IMG/VR virus record: IMGVR_UViG_2554235236_000002
Length of the DNA: 64,000 bases
Strand: one strand, 5' to 3'
DNA from: a virus
This document shows, piece by piece, positions 3,066 to 59,847 of this stretch; the stretch's first letter is position 1; each line of letters begins with the position of its first letter. Position numbers and translations under genes: made by a program. Below the pieces are notes generated by a model. It was given only the letters and a program-made list of their open reading frames with translations. It was not told the DNA's origin and did not search any database.

Positions 3066-3326
3066 TTATTTTATGTATAGCGGTTCATCTTCTTCATCAA
3101 TTTCTTCAGTATCCTCAATTTCAAGCCCCATATTAGAGGCTTGAAGGGTTATGTTGTCACCATCAAAATTTGTTAATGTTATTTCTTTAAGTTCTTCAAA
3201 TTCACCAAAGTCCAAAAGATCATATTCTGTAAGTCGTTTTGCTTCATCTTCTGAGTTTCCAAGTGTTGTGTGGCAAGCGGCTATAGTTAACGTTAAGTGA
3301 TTAACGAATTTTTTCACTTTGTTCAC
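3066..3326 (-). CDS. Small acidic phage protein (86 aa)
   Basis: ORF with RBS directly upstream of the tape-measure gene. Confidence 0.75.
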   Translation of the reverse strand: MNKVKKFVNHLTLTIAACHTTLGNSEDEAKRLTEYDLLDFGEFEELKEITLTNFDGDNITLQASNMGLEIEDTEEIDEEDEPLYIK

Positions 3327-7489: not shown

Positions 7490-7740
7490 TTTAAAACATT
7501 TCATGTCTCTACAAGCACTTGAAAGGGGAGAAGCGGTTATACTTTATTTAACGCCTCAATAAAAACGCTGCCTAAACAATTTTTCTCTCCTTTCAAGATC
7601 ATTTCAATTATCACCACATTGGCTTATGAGAGCTACTTCAGAGGAATACCATTTCTCAAGGGCTTCCTCGAATATTTCTAATACTTCACTTTTGCTCATG
7701 AATTTTTCACCTGCAACTTCAAAAATAAAAAAGACATCCA

Positions 7741-8896: not shown

Positions 8897-9562
8897 GTGA
8901 ACGAATATCTCGCTTTACAAAAAGCAATAGGGAACCATATTGAACAAATGAAAAAGCTGCAAATAAACAGAGTACAGAAATTGTATGACCTAGTAAATGA
9001 AACTAATAACCTTCAACAAAACATATATAAAAATATACCTACAACAGTATTCTCCTTAACATCTCAGCTTGACTCGATTTACAAACAACTTAATACTGCA
9101 TCTTTGCATCAATCAGTTACTAAACAATTGCTTTCTTCGTATAAACCATACGCTTCATTCCAGAATCTAATAGATTCTATAAATGATTTCAGCAATTTAG
9201 ATGTAAGCAAAATTAACTTTTCTGTTGCAGATGAGTTGATAATTGATGATCCAAGCGAACTTGAAAATAAAAAGTATATTGAAGAAGCAGATGAATTTAT
9301 TCAGGAGCAGCACCTAGAAGAGGGGAATGTCACAGCAGAAGATATAAACAACACTATAGAAAAAGCTGATAAGACTCTTAATCCGTATACAAAACTTTAT
9401 GTGTTTCAAACAATTCTCTTTTTCGTACTAATGGCTATCTATATTCAAATAGGTGGGGAGGAAGCACTTGGGATCAACTTTCAAGAGTTTGTTGAAACAT
9501 ATATGGGGTTTAATGCAATACGAACTGTCACCAAGTCATCTGAAAATAACAACAGAGAATAA
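8897..9562 (+). CDS. Hypothetical protein (221 aa, C-terminal TM segment)
   Basis: ORF with RBS, behind the SOS-box promoter. Confidence 0.75.
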   Translation: MNEYLALQKAIGNHIEQMKKLQINRVQKLYDLVNETNNLQQNIYKNIPTTVFSLTSQLDSIYKQLNTASLHQSVTKQLLSSYKPYASFQNLIDSINDFSNLDVSKINFSVADELIIDDPSELENKKYIEEADEFIQEQHLEEGNVTAEDINNTIEKADKTLNPYTKLYVFQTILFFVLMAIYIQIGGEEALGINFQEFVETYMGFNAIRTVTKSSENNNRE

Positions 9563-30354: not shown

Positions 30355-30412
30355 TCACATCTTCTCCTTTTTCGTTAATAAGGCGACTTGCATCTTGCAA
30401 GACCCTTTTGTA

Positions 30413-30484
30413 CAGGGGCGACAGGGATCGAACCTGCCCACGCGGTTTTGGAGACCGCATCGCCACCGAGGAACATGCGCCCCT
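30413..30484 (-). tRNA. tRNA-Trp (CCA), non-canonical D arm, 3' CCA not encoded
   Basis: Acceptor AGGGGCG/CGCCCCT, anticodon arm GCGGT-CTCCAAA-ACCGC, T arm GCAGG-TTCGATC-CCTGT, discriminator G. Confidence 0.85.
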
Positions 30485-30979
30485 AGGATCGCCTGCGCAC
30501 CGGAAGGCTCGGAAGCACATTCCGGAAAGACCCGTAGGCAACGCAAGCACAAATAGAATAGTTTTGAAAAGACAAGACCGAAAATAATCCTTTTCAGTGA
30601 AAGGGGAGCGGTGATCAAACGCTCAAATGCCAATTCACTTATTTTACGATTATAGAAAAATCGCTAACCCGGAAAAATTTTATGCCTCATTCGAATAGTC
30701 GAAGGGCAGTATTCAGATGAGGAAGACGCATCCGCCTCATCTAAGTGCAAGCCGAAGCTGTACACCGCAATTAATTTAAGACAAAACTGTCACCCATAAT
30801 AAGACTGTGATGGGTTCACCCTACAAAGTAGTTAGTAGCAAAGGTCTTATTGACAGTTTTCGTCCGATAATAGCCACTTGCCTGTCTCCTAGAGATACAG
30901 GCGAGCTAGCTAACCTCGATCCCTCGCAAATGACTATTATCCGACCCACTTCAAATTGAAGTGGAGGGAAGAGGAGTAA

Positions 30980-31530: not shown

Positions 31531-32337
31531 CTAAAGCGTTACATTTCGATGTTTTCTTACTCTTGTCCTTGTTTTTTCTTTTGCTATTACGGATGCACAA
31601 GGTGGGCAGTATTTAGATTTGTTACTTTTAAATCTAAATGGAGTTTGGCAATTGACGCATGATTTAACTTTCTTTTGACCAGTGTGCAGATCATAATAGA
31701 GACCGATACTGTCAAACGATTTTATTTTAATAGCCGTTTCTCCGCCGGGTTCAATACCATAGATAAAACTTAATTTAATAAATCCTTTATTCCGAATTTC
31801 AACAATATCCTTCTTGGCCAATTCGCCAATGTTTTGATGCAGCTTGTTGGCAGTTAGCGAAGTATGAGAAGCATCTATAAGTTCTTTGTATCTTTTGTTG
31901 TTTCCGCCAAAATAGTGTTCTGTTGTATGCTCCCCGTATTTGATGTGATGAACTGTCGAATATAATTTTGCTAAGACAAGAAGGGTAAAGCAGAGCTTTT
32001 TTTGTTGATGGTTGATATCTAAAGAATCAATAAATCGAAGTTCATTCTCCGTTATATCAATTTCATTTGCATTGATTAAAATATTTTCTTTTTTTCTTGC
32101 ATAATTAAGTACCGAATTAATTTTTTTGTAATAAAGAACCCGACTAAAGTTTTCAATGTTCTTTTTGCAGAAATCATAAAGGAGCTCTTCACGTTTTTTA
32201 GGCTTATACCCTAATTCTTTATAGTACATTGCCAATAACTTCAGTTCATAATTGAGGTTCTTTGAAATGAATCCATTTTCAATAATTGCTTCTGCATATT
32301 CTTTCTCTTTAAACTTAAATTTGTCTATCATAGACAC
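31531..32337 (-). CDS. Phage protein with C-terminal zinc ribbon (268 aa)
   Basis: CVNC...CPPC; translationally coupled to yonO. Confidence 0.75.
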   Translation of the reverse strand: MSMIDKFKFKEKEYAEAIIENGFISKNLNYELKLLAMYYKELGYKPKKREELLYDFCKKNIENFSRVLYYKKINSVLNYARKKENILINANEIDITENELRFIDSLDINHQQKKLCFTLLVLAKLYSTVHHIKYGEHTTEHYFGGNNKRYKELIDASHTSLTANKLHQNIGELAKKDIVEIRNKGFIKLSFIYGIEPGGETAIKIKSFDSIGLYYDLHTGQKKVKSCVNCQTPFRFKSNKSKYCPPCASVIAKEKTRTRVRKHRNVTL

Positions 32338-35102
32338 ACCTTTCTTAATGAGTAATGTTTATTAAGGTAGTTGATATCACCTTCTTGATCAAGTACAGGG
32401 ATGTTGAAACTTTTTTGTTTTACTTTTACGTTTTCAAATATGTATTGGCCGTAGAGATGCCATAAAATCTCTTTATTTGAGCTCTTTTCATCAACATAAA
32501 ATAAGCGAACAAGGTAATTAACTGCCTCGTAAATATTGGAGCAAATATCATTGAGTCTTTGTTTGAATAAATCTAGGGAATTGGAGAAATTGCTGCAGAG
32601 ATCTGAATCATATAAATTTTTATCTGTATCACTACTTGTTCCCAATGAAAATGATTGATTAATACTTTTTTTATGTTTTTGATATGCTTTTACTACTTTC
32701 CTGTACCGTGATTCATCAAGTTCAACTGCATCATTCATATAAATCTTGTAAATTTCATCATCGATATCCTTGTTAACAATGTTTCTAATACCAAAGTCAA
32801 CGGATTCAATGTACTTGCAGAGTCTGTTCATTACACAGTCGCTCTCAATCACAGGATTAAACCTTTCAAATAACTTAAGAAATTCATGCTGCTCCTTTGT
32901 TTTTCGTTTTACTTTCTTGAGCTCCTGAAGACTAATCCCAAATTTCTGCTTGCAAGTGATATCATAGGTTTTGACATGTTTTTTGTATTTGTTTTTAGTT
33001 CCTTTGTATAAATAAATAAAAAAGTAGGGGTGTTTATCCAATAAGATTCTATTGTAAAATTCCTTAGCCGTCTTAACATTCTCCGAGTCATCTTTTTTGA
33101 TCTTTTGATAATTAATCCAGCGAGAAGGGATGCCTTTAACTTCTCGTCCAATTTTGGCCTTATCAATTTGAGCACTTTGCAATTTGGTACACATTTTTAC
33201 TCGATTTAATGTGGTGAGATACTCTTCAGAATCAGAATCAAGCTGAGAAAGAAGAGCGTAGCCACTCGTGCTTTTATTAGTGATTGAACCAATAATCGAG
33301 CCAAATGAAAAAAGGTCTGCATTAAATAAATCTTCCTCAGTCAAAACCTTTTTGGTTGAAGTGGGAGGGGTGTAGGCCACTGGCAACTCATTTTTATAAA
33401 CCCCCTTTAATACTGTTTTATCCGAAGTTGTTGCAATAATGTCATAGTCGAAATCACTACCAGCCCAATTCATTGTCTCAGAGCCGTGAACATTCACAAT
33501 GATACCTGTGTAATTATGTCTGTACCAATAATCCATATCTTCAGTTTGCTTTAGATTTAAAATCAAATGTTCGCTGCGATAGGTGAGGGGAGCGCGCATA
33601 CTGTCAACATATTTGATTCCTTTTTGATTCCAATAATTTGAGTAGTATTCACGCTTACCTAAAAGCCCTGTTACCTCTAGCCCACAAACGTGCTGCATCA
33701 TTGCATAGGGATCGCTAACAAGAGTCTGGAAGTTACCATCTAAGATTATATCCCCAAGGCATCCGCGTTGGATTTTCCTTTTCATTAAGTCATAAATTTT
33801 CTTTTTTATGTATTTGTCGTTGATTAAGTCAGGGTTAACTATTAAAGACTTAACCCAATGATTATCAGATTTCTCCATGTAATTCGTAATTTTTTCGTCT
33901 GTGACATCAGTACCCAGCAAAAACAAGATGGTGTAATATATGTTGCCTGAATTGACCCCGGTTATCCAGTTAACGAATTTCTCACAGACTTTTTCAATGT
34001 CTTCATGGTTTAGATTCAGAGTCTGCAAAAATTGATAGTTCATTTTCAAAATGTCTTTATCTTTTTTGGGGCTGTGTAGTGAAACTCCCCATTTCAAATT
34101 GTTCTTTTCACAGTTATTTTCATAAACCTCAATGGAGGGAAAGCTGTCCCAGAGTTTAAATTGGCTTTCAGTGAGGATAACATCAATGTCCCTCAAATCC
34201 ACAATTTTTGGGTTCCCGTTAGAGTCTTTATAAGATGTTCTGATTCTATAATTCCCATTGTTTACTTTTTCGCAAAACTCATGAATGGGGAAGGTGTTAA
34301 GCATTCCTTTGATGAAGTTCTGTCTGATACACCATTGTGCAGGTACATAATCTAAGCCTAATTCATCTGCCCATTTTTTCGCCATCTCATAGCTAATCAA
34401 ACCTTGGCCATCAAAACGGTTAAATGATTCAACAATATCTTTAACTTCGATAATGTCATCATCTTCATAATCTGTTTCTGTCACAAAGTTTACTTTTACT
34501 TTAGTGTCGCTATAATAATCAGGGACTAAACAAAACCGGGGAGAACTAACTACTTGAGTGGCGCTGCCAGCCAATCCCTTATAAGCATTAAACTTAGAAG
34601 GGACTAGGGCTTTATTTAAATCTCTTCCGTTATCCAGGATTTCATTAAGTCTTTTGGATGTCTCTTCTTCGATAAATACAACAGTTGAAACCCTTGCTTG
34701 CCCCGCAGAAGACGAGAATCGAATAAACTTTTTATTATTTAAAGTGAGTCCATTTTTATGTAAATCTTTATAATGACTAGGATGATCCATTTTAATTGTT
34801 ATGTATTCTGGAATAAACAGAATTTCGTTAATTTCATTTTGGATACCCTTCAACTTCTTTGAAATATCCTGTGAATGATTTAGTCTTTGTAAAGTTTCCT
34901 TTTCTTTGTTAAGTGATTCAAGGTATGTGTAGTCAACTTCCTTGTTTTTAATGTCCCTAATAGATCTTAAAATTTGATTATCAAATAAAGCAATAACTTC
35001 GTTGTACTCTTGAGCTTCTTCGAATGATAACGATATATTATAGCCAAACTCTTTAAGTCTAGATGAGTTGAATTTGTATGTATAAAACTGTTTATTCTCC
35101 AA
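32328..35102 (-). CDS. yonO: YonO-type single-subunit DNA-dependent RNA polymerase
   Basis: Catalytic DFDYD motif, RFDGQG, RAP motif; 924 aa at the head of the late arm. Confidence 0.92.
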   Translation of the reverse strand: MENKQFYTYKFNSSRLKEFGYNISLSFEEAQEYNEVIALFDNQILRSIRDIKNKEVDYTYLESLNKEKETLQRLNHSQDISKKLKGIQNEINEILFIPEYITIKMDHPSHYKDLHKNGLTLNNKKFIRFSSSAGQARVSTVVFIEEETSKRLNEILDNGRDLNKALVPSKFNAYKGLAGSATQVVSSPRFCLVPDYYSDTKVKVNFVTETDYEDDDIIEVKDIVESFNRFDGQGLISYEMAKKWADELGLDYVPAQWCIRQNFIKGMLNTFPIHEFCEKVNNGNYRIRTSYKDSNGNPKIVDLRDIDVILTESQFKLWDSFPSIEVYENNCEKNNLKWGVSLHSPKKDKDILKMNYQFLQTLNLNHEDIEKVCEKFVNWITGVNSGNIYYTILFLLGTDVTDEKITNYMEKSDNHWVKSLIVNPDLINDKYIKKKIYDLMKRKIQRGCLGDIILDGNFQTLVSDPYAMMQHVCGLEVTGLLGKREYYSNYWNQKGIKYVDSMRAPLTYRSEHLILNLKQTEDMDYWYRHNYTGIIVNVHGSETMNWAGSDFDYDIIATTSDKTVLKGVYKNELPVAYTPPTSTKKVLTEEDLFNADLFSFGSIIGSITNKSTSGYALLSQLDSDSEEYLTTLNRVKMCTKLQSAQIDKAKIGREVKGIPSRWINYQKIKKDDSENVKTAKEFYNRILLDKHPYFFIYLYKGTKNKYKKHVKTYDITCKQKFGISLQELKKVKRKTKEQHEFLKLFERFNPVIESDCVMNRLCKYIESVDFGIRNIVNKDIDDEIYKIYMNDAVELDESRYRKVVKAYQKHKKSINQSFSLGTSSDTDKNLYDSDLCSNFSNSLDLFKQRLNDICSNIYEAVNYLVRLFYVDEKSSNKEILWHLYGQYIFENVKVKQKSFNIPVLDQEGDINYLNKHYSLRKVCL

Positions 35103-36745: not shown

Positions 36746-37440
36746 TTTTGAATCTATTAATTAAAATGGTTTGGGGGGAGATCTGTAATCCTCTCCTTGT
36801 ATCGGCAGCGGATTACATTGCTGTCGTAAGCAAATAAGAAAGCTGAAGAAAAGATAATAGCATCAAGAGGATTTTGTCTTTTTGAGTACAGGAAAGGGGA
36901 GGATGAATCGTAAAAAGTTTGGGGGAGAAGGGCTTGAGAATGATTTAGGTAAGATGGAGAGTATTTTAGAGGGAGGGGAGAGTGTGAAAAGTGTTGAGAT
37001 AAAAGGGTTTTACGATAGCGAATACGATTAAATTAGGCTGAAACCCAAAAATAATCATGGTGTGGAAATGGAAGTGCTAGGGGAATATTCGTTCCCTTTT
37101 TTGTTATTTTGGATGTTAATATCCCCCCCTATATAGCCTAATATATGGTATCCATTTACGGTTATAAGGGTAGTTATAACTTGATTTATTGAATCCTGAT
37201 TCAGAAAAACAGTGAGATCAATATAATATTAAAAAGTCAACCATTTAAGAAGATATTTTTAAAAAAATTGAAACTGTAATCAGATGAGGGAGCACGCTTT
37301 TTTTAAATAAAGAATCGTTTGAATAACAGTGGGCGGCGAGTCGAAGACTTATTTTTTATTTAACACACTTATACCAAATAATAACCCTTTCCCCTTACCT
37401 ATATTATTCTCTAAAAAACAAACTAATTAAAAGAAATATA

Positions 37441-37469
37441 TTGACTATCTTTAATAGTCATGATACAAT
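37441..37469 (+). promoter_or_regulatory. Early promoter with palindromic operator
   Basis: TTGACT-17-TACAAT; GACTA-N7-TAGTC. Confidence 0.75.
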
Positions 37470-37517
37470 TTAAATATAGTTAAGCGATACATATATAGCC
37501 GAAAGGGGAAATAAAAA

Positions 37518-38295: not shown

Positions 38296-38478
38296 GTGTT
38301 TGATAGGGTAGGTGTTGTGTTGGCTATTGTCTTATCTCTTTCAACGCTGACAATCAATATACTAACCATTATTGAGAAGTTAGCCACAATAAGAAACAAG
38401 ACAAGCCATAGACATCAAAGAAAAAAGCGTCTACGAAAGCGAAACCGGGCAAGGCACCGCAGACGTACACGCCTATAA
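38296..38478 (+). CDS. yonT: Type I toxin YonT-like (TM helix plus Arg/Lys tail)
   Basis: VGVVLAIVLSLSTLTINILTIIEK followed by RHQRKKRLRKR. Confidence 0.85.
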   Translation: MFDRVGVVLAIVLSLSTLTINILTIIEKLATIRNKTSHRHQRKKRLRKRNRARHRRRTRL

Positions 38479-38547
38479 CACAGCAGGCTAGAGGAGTAAT
38501 CCTCTAGCTTCATCTACAGTATAACATAATCAAACACAATTTAAAAC

Positions 38548-40022: not shown

Positions 40023-40268
40023 ATTGCGGCTATGAAAAAAAAAGCAATAAATCATTTTTAAAAGTCTTCTGTCCCAAGGGGTTTTTAGACCTGTCCCGTA
40101 AAAGAAAGAGTGTATATAAATTAAAAGAATAGATAGAAAAACCTTGGGATGCTGACAAACATTTAAAACAGCTTCGCTGCCTTAAATGTTTTGGTCTGCA
40201 CCATCCCAAACCCTTCACAGACTTATAAATATAATTACATACAAATTAAAAATATTAATAAAAAATAA

Positions 40269-40297
40269 TTGACTATCTAAAATAGTCATGATAATAT
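40269..40297 (+). promoter_or_regulatory. Early promoter with palindromic operator
   Basis: TTGACT-17-TAATAT; GACTA-N7-TAGTC. Confidence 0.75.
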
Positions 40298-40328
40298 AAT
40301 AATAGATCAAATGACAAATTAAAAGGAG

Positions 40329-42272: not shown

Positions 42273-42291
42273 ATAAATTAAAAGAAATATG

Positions 42292-42320
42292 TTGACTATT
42301 TAACGTGGTCGTCTTATAAT
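42292..42320 (+). promoter_or_regulatory. Early promoter with degenerate operator
   Basis: TTGACT-17-TATAAT; GACTA-N7-TGGTC. Confidence 0.7.
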
Positions 42321-42354
42321 AAAGACACAAACAAATTAAAAGTTATAGAAGAGA

Positions 42355-43053: not shown

Positions 43054-43319
43054 TAAGAGTTATGAGAAAAAGAGCGGGTTTCGTGTATAGCAAGCGTGTA
43101 GGCGATCCATCAAGCAAATATGGTTTAAATCCTGATCAATTTGAAATTGATATCATGAATAAACAAAGGCAAACCCAAGAGCTTAAAGAACATTATAAAG
43201 AATCCTTATACGAGCTGATTAAAGTTAATGCTTTAGGGCATGAAATGTTTCCGGATGATAGGTTTTCCTTAATTCTAGAATGTTTAAGAGAGATTAAAGA
43301 GGAATTAAAAATAAATTAA
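43050..43319 (+). CDS. Hypothetical protein
   Basis: ORF coupled to upstream gene. Confidence 0.55.
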   Translation: MIRVMRKRAGFVYSKRVGDPSSKYGLNPDQFEIDIMNKQRQTQELKEHYKESLYELIKVNALGHEMFPDDRFSLILECLREIKEELKIN

Positions 43320-43328
43320 AAATATATG

Positions 43329-43357
43329 TTGACTAATTAAAATAGTCATAGTATAAT
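43329..43357 (+). promoter_or_regulatory. Early promoter with palindromic operator
   Basis: TTGACT-17-TATAAT; GACTA-N7-TAGTC. Confidence 0.75.
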
Positions 43358-43432
43358 AAAAACATAAGAAAAAGCAATTAATAAAAACCTAAAATACTAA
43401 TTAAAAGTAAAACGAGAAAAAGGGAGAAGGAA

Positions 43433-44382: not shown

Positions 44383-44595
44383 ATGACACACAACGAAAAA
44401 TTACTAAACGCATTAATGCAGTTCAAAAATTCAGCATATGAAATTCGGGATCTTTGGGAGCAAGCCGACAGCATAACAGATAGTGATCTTTGTGATGATT
44501 ATCCATTTGATAATGATTTTTGTGAAGTTGTTGAAAAGATAGGTGACTGGGTAATGACACAAAATAGCTTATTAAATCAAAATAAAACAAATTAA
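44383..44595 (+). CDS. Hypothetical protein (70 aa)
   Basis: ORF with RBS. Confidence 0.7.
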   Translation: MTHNEKLLNALMQFKNSAYEIRDLWEQADSITDSDLCDDYPFDNDFCEVVEKIGDWVMTQNSLLNQNKTN

Positions 44596-44631
44596 AATGA
44601 TTAAGGTGAGATGTAACAGACATCTTATAAC

Positions 44632-44696
44632 AGTCGTGGCGGCGACGTTAAATAGGCATTAAGCCGCCAGCGTTCCCCACATTGGGGAGGTTGCAA
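44632..44696 (+). ncRNA. Pistol self-cleaving ribozyme
   Basis: P1 GUCG/CGAC with loop UGGCGG pseudoknotting to CCGCCA; UUAAAUAG linker; P2 GCA/UGC; UUAAG; GCG; P3 CCCC/GGGG; AGG-U cleavage motif. Confidence 0.9.
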
Positions 44697-44727
44697 CAGG
44701 AATAACTCTATATTTCATCGCAATAAA

Positions 44728-44952
44728 ATGCGAATTAAAAAGAAAAGGGATGATAATATGAATGAAATGGATTTAATTCATGCGTTTAAATCAATGCTAA
44801 TGGTAGCTAGAGAATACGAATTAAAAATTGATGAGAAGTACGAAGAATTAGAAAATATCCTTTTAGAAGAGTATGACTTAGAAGTGGTTCATACAGTGGA
44901 TCATGACATGATGGATAGTATGGAAAACGTGTATCAACTATTAAATAAATAA
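44728..44952 (+). CDS. Hypothetical protein (likely start 44758)
   Basis: ORF just downstream of the ribozyme. Confidence 0.65.
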   Translation: MRIKKKRDDNMNEMDLIHAFKSMLMVAREYELKIDEKYEELENILLEEYDLEVVHTVDHDMMDSMENVYQLLNK

Positions 44953-46943: not shown

Positions 46944-47159
46944 GTGAGAAAAATGATTAGATCAAATTTAAAGGCTATTGCAGATGAGGCAGGCATTTCA
47001 ATTTCTCGATTAAGTGCCGAAATAAATCATGGGAAAGAAACCGTTAGAAAAATGTACAATGATGACATGGAGCGGTTTCCAAGAGAATTGCTTGATAAGC
47101 TTTGCAAGCATTTCAACTGTGAACCAGGAGACTTGATAAAATTCGAAAAAGATGAATAA
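46944..47159 (+). CDS. yopB: Cro/C1-type HTH regulator
   Basis: [21 protein letters not shown]...[12 protein letters not shown]. Confidence 0.8.
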
Positions 47160-47174
47160 ATTTCTAATTAATTA

Positions 47175-47203
47175 TTGACTATTTAAAATAGTCGTTATAT
47201 AAT
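47175..47203 (+). promoter_or_regulatory. Early promoter with perfect palindromic operator
   Basis: TTGACT-17-TATAAT; GACTATTT-A-AAATAGTC. Confidence 0.8.
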
Positions 47204-47242
47204 TAAATCAGAGGTTAAACAAATTAAATGGAATGAGAGGGA

Positions 47243-54143: not shown

Positions 54144-55313
54144 GTGGTGAAAGAATTGGAGTTGAAAAATTTTTTAAAGAATAAATGTGAAGAAGAACGC
54201 GGACTCGAAAAGGAGCTTGCACGAATAGCAGGATACTCTAACTCGTCAGGCTTTCATCATTTCATTTACAATGAAAAGAAAGAAATGGATAATATTCAAG
54301 GTATCATTGACGTGATTCAGAAGATTTCCCCGGAATATGAGTTTGATTTAATGAGTGAATACATATTGACATTAGACATAAATAAATCTGCAGCAAGGCA
54401 AGGCTTAGAATACCTTAGTGTAAATCAGCTATATGACACTCTAGATAAACATATTAAGAAAATGGTGTCTGCAAAGAATTCAGTTAGTAAAGAATGGGGA
54501 AAAGTCTATGCAGCCCAAAGAGAGCTAGACAAAGGCAACATTGGTATTGAAGAGTGCATTAGGCTGTTGGCTGAAATACACCCCAAATCATCTGAAATGA
54601 AGGTTTACTCTAGGATTATCCCCATGTATGCCATACTACCTTTAAAGCAATTTGGTAGATTAAAAGATATGAGTGATATTGTCTTGATTGACACAATCAG
54701 TAATCAAAATTATGTTTATCATTCGTTTAAGAGTCGCTATATGCTATTACTGGCAAACTGCTTCTTTGGAAACAATGAGATTGAGAAAGCACAAGAATAC
54801 GCAAGACATGGGATAGAGAATTCAAATGTGAAGAGGATCATTTTTTTCTCATACCTCACGTATGGAAGTTCTTTAATGTTAGATGATTACGAGAAATCAA
54901 AAAGCAGTTTTTTGAAAGGTTTAGAAGTTGGCAAAGGAAACAAAATTTATGAGCAACATGCGATTAGAAATCTTTGTTTCCTAGAAAATCTATGGGGGAA
55001 AGAGAATCAATATTTGAATATACAATCTAATGAAATAATGGACAGGCAAGAAGTTGTTCATTATCTTATAAGAAAAGGTTCTAAGCAACAGGCCAAAAAA
55101 ATGCTTGACCAGTTAGATCTCATGGAGCACGATGATAACGATCTGGGATTGCATTATTATTTAAAAGGACTTTTGGAAAGCTCTCGCGAATATTTTTTAG
55201 AATCAGTCAAATATTTTAAATTAAGTGGTGATAAGTTTTCCTGCACCCTTCCAATAATTGAACTCGAAAAGTTAGGTGTTGAAAAACAAATTTTAGAGAT
55301 AATATCAATTTGA
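54144..55313 (+). CDS. aimR: Arbitrium receptor AimR (RRNPP/TPR family)
   Basis: 389 aa, N-terminal HTH, ARQGLEYLSVN, TPR repeats, followed by a peptide gene. Confidence 0.93.
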   Translation: MVKELELKNFLKNKCEEERGLEKELARIAGYSNSSGFHHFIYNEKKEMDNIQGIIDVIQKISPEYEFDLMSEYILTLDINKSAARQGLEYLSVNQLYDTLDKHIKKMVSAKNSVSKEWGKVYAAQRELDKGNIGIEECIRLLAEIHPKSSEMKVYSRIIPMYAILPLKQFGRLKDMSDIVLIDTISNQNYVYHSFKSRYMLLLANCFFGNNEIEKAQEYARHGIENSNVKRIIFFSYLTYGSSLMLDDYEKSKSSFLKGLEVGKGNKIYEQHAIRNLCFLENLWGKENQYLNIQSNEIMDRQEVVHYLIRKGSKQQAKKMLDQLDLMEHDDNDLGLHYYLKGLLESSREYFLESVKYFKLSGDKFSCTLPIIELEKLGVEKQILEIISI

Positions 55314-58845: not shown

Positions 58846-59847
58846 ATGGAACTGTATAATGATACGGTAAAGAAAAAGTTTATAGAACAAGTCAAAAAGG
58901 AAGAGCAGCCCCAGTTATTATCAATATTCCGAAAAGGTGCAGAACTTGAAGAATATTTGAAAAAAGATATTTACGATTTTAATTCTAAAGAAATTCTTGA
59001 GTTCCTAACTCTGTTGAATAGATCCACGCTTTCTTCTATAATGAGCTGCTGGTCTCACATCACAAGGTATATTGATTGGGCAATTTATCAGAATATCACT
59101 AAAGGTACTACAAATTTGTCTAGAGACTTAACTATTGATGATGTTAAGAACTGCGTTGATGAAGGGAAGAAGCTCTATATTACTTTAAATGAGCTCAAAG
59201 AAATTTTAGATACCTTAGTGAATCCCAGAGACAGAGCCATGTTAATTCTGCTATTTGAAGGGGTTCAAGGTTTCAAATGCAGTGAAATATTAAATCTTGA
59301 AAAATCAGATATTGAAAAAGCCTTACAGAATAACAACATTTTAACCGTAACTGATGATAAGCATGGGCAGAGAGATATCAAAGTGAGTGATGAATGTCTT
59401 AAAATTTGTCTTAAAGCTGCAAATGAACCAGTGTATCAAAAGAAAAATGGATATTCTGAAGCGTTTAATAAAGAAACAATATTAGCTGATAATAATTTTG
59501 TAATTAGAAACCGAAGAACCAATTCAGATAAAGATCAAGAAAGATCTTCGTTTTTTGTCATAATTAACACGATGAGATATATTTTCTCACCAGAGTTTTT
59601 TGATTATCCATATGTTAACCCAACAAGAATAAATAGGTCTGGTGTTTTATATGAAGGATTTAAAGTGTATAAAGAAAAAGGGAAATTAGAAACAGAAGAT
59701 TATATTAATATAATTCAAAAGAGAAGCGAAAGATATGAAGACATTCATAAAAAGGTTTACAAGGTTAAAGAATATATGAATGAAGATGAGATTAAAAAAT
59801 ATTATGCGAAAGAGCTTGGAATTGAGGGTACTATTAGAATGCGTTAA
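58846..59847 (+). CDS. yopR: Master repressor (MrpR/SroF), integrase-like fold
   Basis: LLFEGVQGFKCSEILNL, INRSG; last gene of the operon. Confidence 0.82.
   Translation: MELYNDTVKKKFIEQVKKEEQPQLLSIFRKGAELEEYLKKDIYDFNSKEILEFLTLLNRSTLSSIMSCWSHITRYIDWAIYQNITKGTTNLSRDLTIDDVKNCVDEGKKLYITLNELKEILDTLVNPRDRAMLILLFEGVQGFKCSEILNLEKSDIEKALQNNNILTVTDDKHGQRDIKVSDECLKICLKAANEPVYQKKNGYSEAFNKETILADNNFVIRNRRTNSDKDQERSSFFVIINTMRYIFSPEFFDYPYVNPTRINRSGVLYEGFKVYKEKGKLETEDYINIIQKRSERYEDIHKKVYKVKEYMNEDEIKKYYAKELGIEGTIRMR

Follow-up and report, generated by a model that had tools for sequence, protein, structure and literature searches.

A complete pistol-class self-cleaving ribozyme between two small genes of an SPbeta-like temperate Bacillus phage

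No function has yet been established for the pistol ribozymes (Weinberg et al. 2015), or for most of the self-cleaving ribozymes carried by bacteria and phages. A stretch of 64,000 nucleotides of viral DNA, hereafter the window, raises the question of this role at one defined locus, where a short GC-rich segment lies in the 162-nt gap between two open reading frames of the plus strand (44383-44595 and 44758-44952). The first-pass annotation had read this segment as an intact pistol ribozyme by which the phage cuts its own early polycistronic mRNA, uncoupling or down-tuning the small genes that follow. It was thus of interest to establish whether the segment is a true member of the class, in which message it would be transcribed and which of its two neighbours, if any, its cleavage would serve.

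The letters at 44632-44696 were exactly as previously quoted. When the window was scanned with Infernal against 4227 Rfam families, the sole match above threshold in the 64 kb was Pistol (RF02679) at 44632-44695 on the plus strand, covering the full model (positions 1-68 of 68) with 61.2 bits against a gathering score of 34.5 and an E-value of 1.1e-8 (cmscan). This match is far beyond chance, and the search with the Rfam pistol model, which had been proposed as a check of the initial reading, consequently supports it. No second ribozyme family was found by the Rfam scan at E-values up to 1 between 36 and 64 kb of the window. The GC content over the match reached 0.58 for a window mean of 0.35, in agreement with the earlier description of a GC-rich intergenic island, and amounted to 0.50 and 0.47 in the two 64-nt intervals overlapping the pistol, with flanking intervals at 0.23-0.41. 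An identical copy of the ribozyme is present in the nearest related record, a 127-kb IMG/VR provirus (G001) that is identical to the window at this locus.

Alignment to the model allowed each element of the class to be placed on the plus strand. The P1 hairpin (44633-44646) pairs GUCG at 44633-44636 with CGAC at 44643-44646, and its loop UGGCGG (44637-44642) contributes the 5' strand of the pseudoknot, whose 3' strand CCGCCA (44664-44669) pairs with it at six of six positions. Between P1 and P2 runs an A-rich linker, UUAAAUAG (44648-44655), which corresponds to conserved model positions 17-24, is nearly invariant in relatives and retains the AAA of the conserved linker (44650-44652). P2 joins GCA at 44656-44658 to UGC at 44692-44694 by three Watson-Crick pairs only, a feature counted against a functional reading; the flanking pair G44655/A44695 received a positive model score. 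P3 (44673-44689) is a hairpin of 6 bp in which UUCCCC (44673-44678) and GGGGAG (44684-44689) enclose the loop ACAUU.

The nucleotides expected around the active site were also found. Structures of the env25 pistol place A32, G33, G40 and G42 closest to the scissile bond, with the cut at G53-U54 (PMC7027511). The A-G at 44662-44663, within a UUAAG motif, and the GCG at 44670-44672 are the equivalents of A32/G33 and of G40, C41 and G42 respectively, such that the four equivalents A44662, G44663, G44670 and G44672 are all retained and G44663-C44671 represents the invariant G33-C41 pair. Because the cleavage bond of the family falls within a junction whose length is strictly 2 nt (PMC4604425), the cut is predicted between G44690 and U44691, a G-U junction (44690-44691) onto which model positions 63 and 64 map and where the first-pass annotation had also placed it. 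With all conserved unpaired nucleotides and the strict 2-nt junction present, the sequence at 44632-44695 has every sequence and structure feature that defines the pistol family, and the element-by-element parse of an intact ribozyme proposed earlier is upheld.

Comparison with other pistols provided additional evidence on this structure. No match to the locus was found among 50,697 phage records (megablast, blastn), and searches of plasmids returned two short matches only, neither of them covering the pistol; the comparison sequences were therefore taken from IMG/VR and from genome contigs. They came from proviruses found through the flanking proteins, from a DNA pattern scan and from species-representative genomes, and all were confirmed with Rfam. 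Seventeen of these pistols were aligned and evaluated for pairing and covariation on the pistol structure, pseudoknot included. Standard pairs occupied 91.7% of the pair cells (96% in the pseudoknot), and double-sided changes were observed in 14 of the 21 pairs, distributed over P1 (3 of 5), the pseudoknot (4 of 6), P2 (3 of 3) and P3 (4 of 6), so that every multi-pair helix, pseudoknot included, displays compensatory changes. The pseudoknot, for instance, reads UGGCGG/CCGCCA in the window, UUAGGG/CCCUAA in L027, UCCGGG/CCCGGA in L040b and UUUGAG/CUCAAA in L028. None of 500 shuffles reached the observed values of pairing and covariation, and when partners were slid by 1-3 columns the count fell to 1-3 pairs. 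The structural claim is solid, since the covariation lies far above both the shuffled and the slid controls.

Most relatives have diverged in the 5' flank but hardly at all in the 64-nt core, and substitutions in the pseudoknot and P1 mostly preserve pairing, either by compensation or as wobble pairs. Two copies depart from this pattern, both at 3239-3302 of their contigs: that of L007 carries an A-to-C change in the AAA linker and a P3 mismatch, and that of L041 a G-to-A change at the equivalent of G42 together with P1 mismatches. Both score 46-49 bits and may represent weakened or decaying ribozymes. Since these changes affect conserved positions, the pistol is not kept intact in every lineage. 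A separate observation concerns an unrelated viral contig (L040, IMGVR_UViG_3300028591_000440), which holds two pistols on the same strand, 1.5 kb apart (7512-7579 and 8999-9075), each 6-8 nt past the stop codon of an ORF, the second with a long insertion in P3.

The element that carries the window's pistol is, judged by its gene content, a large SPbeta-like temperate phage in the broad sense. It encodes a YonO-like single-subunit RNA polymerase of 924 aa (32328-35102, minus strand), 78% identical to that of Bacillus phage BUCT082 (Spbetavirus) and 25% to that of the SPbeta-type phage SPbetaL5, and its portal and tail genes lie on the minus strand. It also encodes a homologue of the arbitrium receptor AimR (54144-55313, plus strand; E-value of 8e-90 to solved AimR structures) and one of the master repressor MrpR/YopR (58846-59847, plus strand; E-value of 7e-73). 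The presence of both regulators implies a lysis-lysogeny control of SPbeta type, and together with the polymerase they agree with the SPbeta-like setting assumed in the first-pass annotation. Relatives of the polymerase at 30-31% identity occur in Clostridium phage c-st and in Enterocloster phages. Two further RNA features were recorded in the window. A sub-threshold match to the SR6 antitoxin (RF02892; 45.1 bits against a gathering score of 55, E-value of 6.5e-5), the antisense RNA partner in a type I toxin-antitoxin system of Bacillus, spans the full model at 38416-38511 on the minus strand, where the structural genes of the minus strand give way to the small genes of the plus strand. Within the window, GC content is highest (up to 0.70) in an island at 30378-30560, which contains a tRNA-Trp with anticodon CCA (30413-30484, minus strand), upstream of which, on the same minus strand, about 65 further GC-rich bases have no Rfam match.

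The question of the message in which the pistol would be transcribed was approached through the promoters of the small-gene block. A promoter module of 69 nt recurs five times on the plus strand (37425-37493, 40253-40321, 42276-42344, 43313-43381 and 47159-47227). It consists of a sigma-A-like TTGACT-17-TATAAT whose -35 box overlaps a dyad, TGACTA-N7-TAGTCA, found in its exact form at four sites in the window for 0 expected. The copy at 43329-43357 (plus strand), made of the same TTGACT-17-TATAAT with its dyad, is the likely promoter of the unit containing the pistol, and the next copy, at 47175-47203, bounds this unit. Every sizeable ORF from the 43329 promoter to 47.1 kb is on the plus strand and no terminator was predicted between these points. 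With promoter copies at both ends, co-directional ORFs and no predicted terminator, the pistol most likely belongs to an early operon under repressor control, about 1.3 kb from the operon's start, with three genes preceding the ribozyme and at least six following it, and its description as part of an early polycistronic mRNA was hence a reasonable one.

The dyad modules have the appearance of a set of operators for the phage's own master repressor. In SPbeta, the master repressor MrpR binds the SPBRE repeat present in early promoters (PMC10516654). An identity between the dyad and SPBRE was considered and rejected, the exact dyad being absent from SPbeta and from BUCT082; the analogy with SPBRE is thus one of architecture only.

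The genes on either side of the pistol were then compared among relatives. When ten neighbouring ORFs were scanned with PHROG and Pfam, neither flanking gene was given a function, and no antisense ORF of at least 60 aa runs across the window's own pistol. The upstream gene (44383-44595, plus strand) encodes a 70-aa orphan protein belonging to no Pfam or PHROG family. Apart from one contig (L043), its homologues are confined to the B. licheniformis group, namely B. licheniformis, B. paralicheniformis, B. glycinifermentans and B. swezeyi. A pistol of 46-61 bits was present at the same site in 11 of the 11 IMG/VR proviruses with a homologue of this gene, and also in B. glycinifermentans, B. swezeyi and contig L043, that is in all 14 loci, where it lies 25-167 nt 3' of the stop codon of the 70-aa gene. 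Contig L043 (JAEORV010000312.1, 3.7 kb) belongs to a 'Promethearchaeota' MAG and carries, at 1650-1846, a fragment of the 70-aa gene with 87% identity followed by a pistol of 60.6 bits; misbinning or contamination of this archaeal MAG with Bacillus-phage sequence is the most likely origin of the contig.

The downstream gene (44758-44952, plus strand) encodes 64 aa and likely starts at ATG 44758 behind a ribosome-binding site, its frame being open from 44728. It is preceded by a segment that would form the leader of the 3' cleavage product (44696-44757, plus strand), conserved in most relatives and containing the ribosome-binding site AAAGGG and a small hairpin, UCGCA-N6-UGCGA. The fold of this leader is no better than that of shuffled sequence (z -0.17), and neither an upstream hairpin (44612-44626) nor a downstream one (44717-44733) displays consistent covariation. 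On this side the neighbourhood varies. In L022 and L024 the downstream gene is present next to a different upstream neighbour and with no pistol, homology starting at 44761; in L008 the homology to the window stops at 44725, beyond which the leader is replaced and another gene follows; and in L041/L047 the leader and the next gene both differ from those of the window. As the 70-aa gene is always accompanied by a pistol while the downstream gene varies, the ribozyme travels with the upstream gene. The 14 cases of linkage are not independent, the relatives being close (82-100% protein identity).

Taken together, these results make it very probable that the segment is a functional pistol-class ribozyme transcribed within an operon of small co-directional genes (about 43.36-47.16 kb) in an SPbeta-like temperate Bacillus phage; from this we infer cutting in the cell and separate stabilities or translation for the two halves of the message. 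Once RNA polymerase has passed 44695, the 64-nt RNA would fold into P1, the pseudoknot, P2 and P3. G44670, the equivalent of env25 G40, would then activate the 2'-OH of G44690, a Mg2+ held by G44663 would aid the leaving group and the chain would break between G44690 and U44691. In env25, roles are assigned to the 2'-OH of ribose 32, to N7 of G33, which binds the catalytic hydrated Mg2+, and to G40 as the general base (PMC7027511), and the pistols tested so far cleave at rates of about 4-10 per minute when Mg2+ is at physiological levels (PMC4604425, PMC7027511). The 5' product would comprise the three upstream genes and a compact, near-complete ribozyme ending in a 2',3'-cyclic phosphate on G44690, and the 3' product would begin with a 5'-OH on U44691, 67 nt before the next start codon, and carry at least six small genes.

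Public RNA data were also considered at the site. The stretch is contained in 15 RNA runs, in all cases as assembled contigs, and four of these runs were compared with the operon. In run X7 one contig ends at 44671 and the next begins at 44701, leaving a hole of 29 nt which contains the predicted cut; two other breaks occur in the same run within about 3.9 kb. This break around the cut site is a weak hint at cleavage in the cell, as structured GC-rich segments also lose coverage for other reasons. Two other runs labelled as RNA, X2 and X3, gave contigs of 13.9 and 43 kb that span the site, and consequently either uncleaved RNA or carried-over DNA exists in these samples.

The effect proposed in the first-pass annotation is that the cut would mainly lower the downstream cluster (44.7-46.6 kb), its 5'-OH product being decayed by RNase J1 as is that of glmS. 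Degradation of the glmS 5'-OH product by RNase J1 is reported for B. subtilis (Collins 2007, cited in PMC11780869), and the 67-nt leader of the predicted product is without a significant protective fold (z -0.17 as given above), such that down-tuning by this route is plausible by analogy. On the other hand, the pistol is linked to the upstream gene, and the gene supposedly regulated is swapped in L008 and L041 and found pistol-free in L022 and L024. The depth in run X7 is also higher for the downstream contig (18.4) than just upstream (9.0), contig depth being a poor measure of expression, and entry of RNase J1 could be blocked by the nearby ribosome-binding site or by pairing of the 5'-terminal UUGC with GCAA at 44720-44723, a pairing for which no covariation was observed. 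Down-tuning as the main effect of the cut is thus possible but somewhat doubtful, and the linkage to the upstream gene speaks no less for a function at the 3' end of the upstream message. The ribozyme would then be part of the upstream cassette and would provide the 70-aa gene, wherever it is recombined, with a structured 3' end capped by a cyclic phosphate that insulates its message. Such a role would fit the retention of the pistol in the 14 loci with differing downstream partners, as well as the position of distant phage pistols (L027, L040), which start from 1 nt inside the upstream ORF to 8 nt past its stop codon, and the fact that nearly the whole ribozyme stays on the 5' product after the predicted cut. 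The same linkage could, however, reflect the positions of recombination breakpoints, and the closeness of the 14 relatives reduces its weight; this role is held with the same reserve as down-tuning. An extension of it, in which gene and ribozyme form a mobile cassette with the pistol as its 3' module and self-cutting makes the message of the orphan gene independent of context, is still more tentative and rather unlikely. If true, small phage genes could move between operons and leave the stability of the messages around them unaffected, and the cassette would be a natural counterpart of the synthetic ribozyme insulators designed for gene circuits.

The distribution of the pistol bears on whether cleavage is of any use to the phage. 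The survey of SPbeta-like genomes for the same insertion, suggested along with the initial reading, gave a divided answer: a pistol at the same site in 11 related IMG/VR proviruses, none in SPbeta (SPBc2), phi3T, SPR and BUCT082. It was not found either in EZ-2018a, in Geobacillus virus E3 or in two related proviruses, and 2 of the 49 species-representative genomes of the genus Bacillus contain one. The pistol is therefore an accessory element and, as the closest cultured phages are without it, is dispensable for a phage of this type. These absences, from the six phages named and from 47 of the 49 genomes, and the core substitutions of the L007 and L041 copies would be expected of a neutral passenger of a mosaic small-gene region, cleaving with no adaptive role or already decaying. 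A passenger would not, however, be expected to keep its 64-nt core nearly invariant in most relatives while its 5' flank diverges, nor to change in the pseudoknot and P1 mostly by compensation or wobble, which makes this reading improbable. Trimming of the 5' leader of a separate transcript, started from an internal promoter at 44554-44583, was also weighed. The sequence there is a weak match (ATGACA-18-CAAAAT, 9 of 12 positions) of a kind no commoner than in shuffled sequence (57 found for 47.7 expected), it falls inside the upstream coding region and it is without the dyad operator of the four promoter copies that match exactly; trimming of this kind is very unlikely.

Compared with known systems, the locus in the window is a real, ordinary pistol in the usual setting for its class. 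It shares P1, the 6-bp pseudoknot, P2, P3 and the G-U junction with the pistol class (RF02679; PMC4604425) and its env25 member (PMC7027511), from which it differs by a P2 one pair shorter and by the sequences of its helices, their pairing being kept. Pistols are common near phage genes in Firmicutes (PMC4604425), and the present setting is typical in that respect. Since standard Rfam annotation finds the pistol, nothing here is new in kind; what is new is that it invariably accompanies one orphan gene and that it occurs in a phage related to a pistol-less model. SPbeta is the best-developed model of a temperate phage in Bacillus, and the hosts of its relative described here, in the licheniformis group, are culturable and close to genetically tractable Bacillus. 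The combination of one ribozyme, one defined operon and natural relatives without a pistol would offer a clean system for the study of message stability and RNase J1.

The idea of downstream processing is itself an existing hypothesis, as the processing of polycistronic RNA into pieces of differing stability was already proposed for phage hammerhead and twister ribozymes (PMC3088659, PMC6765202). Like the hammerheads of prophage operons (Perreault et al. 2011, PMC3088659; reviewed in PMC6765202), the window's pistol occupies a short intergenic gap flanked by small phage genes of the same orientation, whereas the clustered ribozymes of PMC3088659 flank successive genes and the present locus has a single ribozyme, of the pistol class. 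The glmS ribozyme of B. subtilis (Collins 2007, cited in PMC11780869) has the same product chemistry as that predicted here and a host of the same genus, and the RNase J1 decay route is therefore available to the pistol products; glmS is, on the other hand, ligand-dependent and located in a 5' UTR, whereas the pistol lies mid-operon and belongs to a class that is constitutive as far as known. A parallel in location is the B. licheniformis plasmid pLSDY01 (PMC13269093, 2026), a mobile element of the same species group with a pistol beside SPbeta-type yop/yoq genes; there the pistol, on a plasmid of 212 kb, is mentioned as an annotation only, whereas the element described here is a chromosomal-type provirus of about 127 kb.
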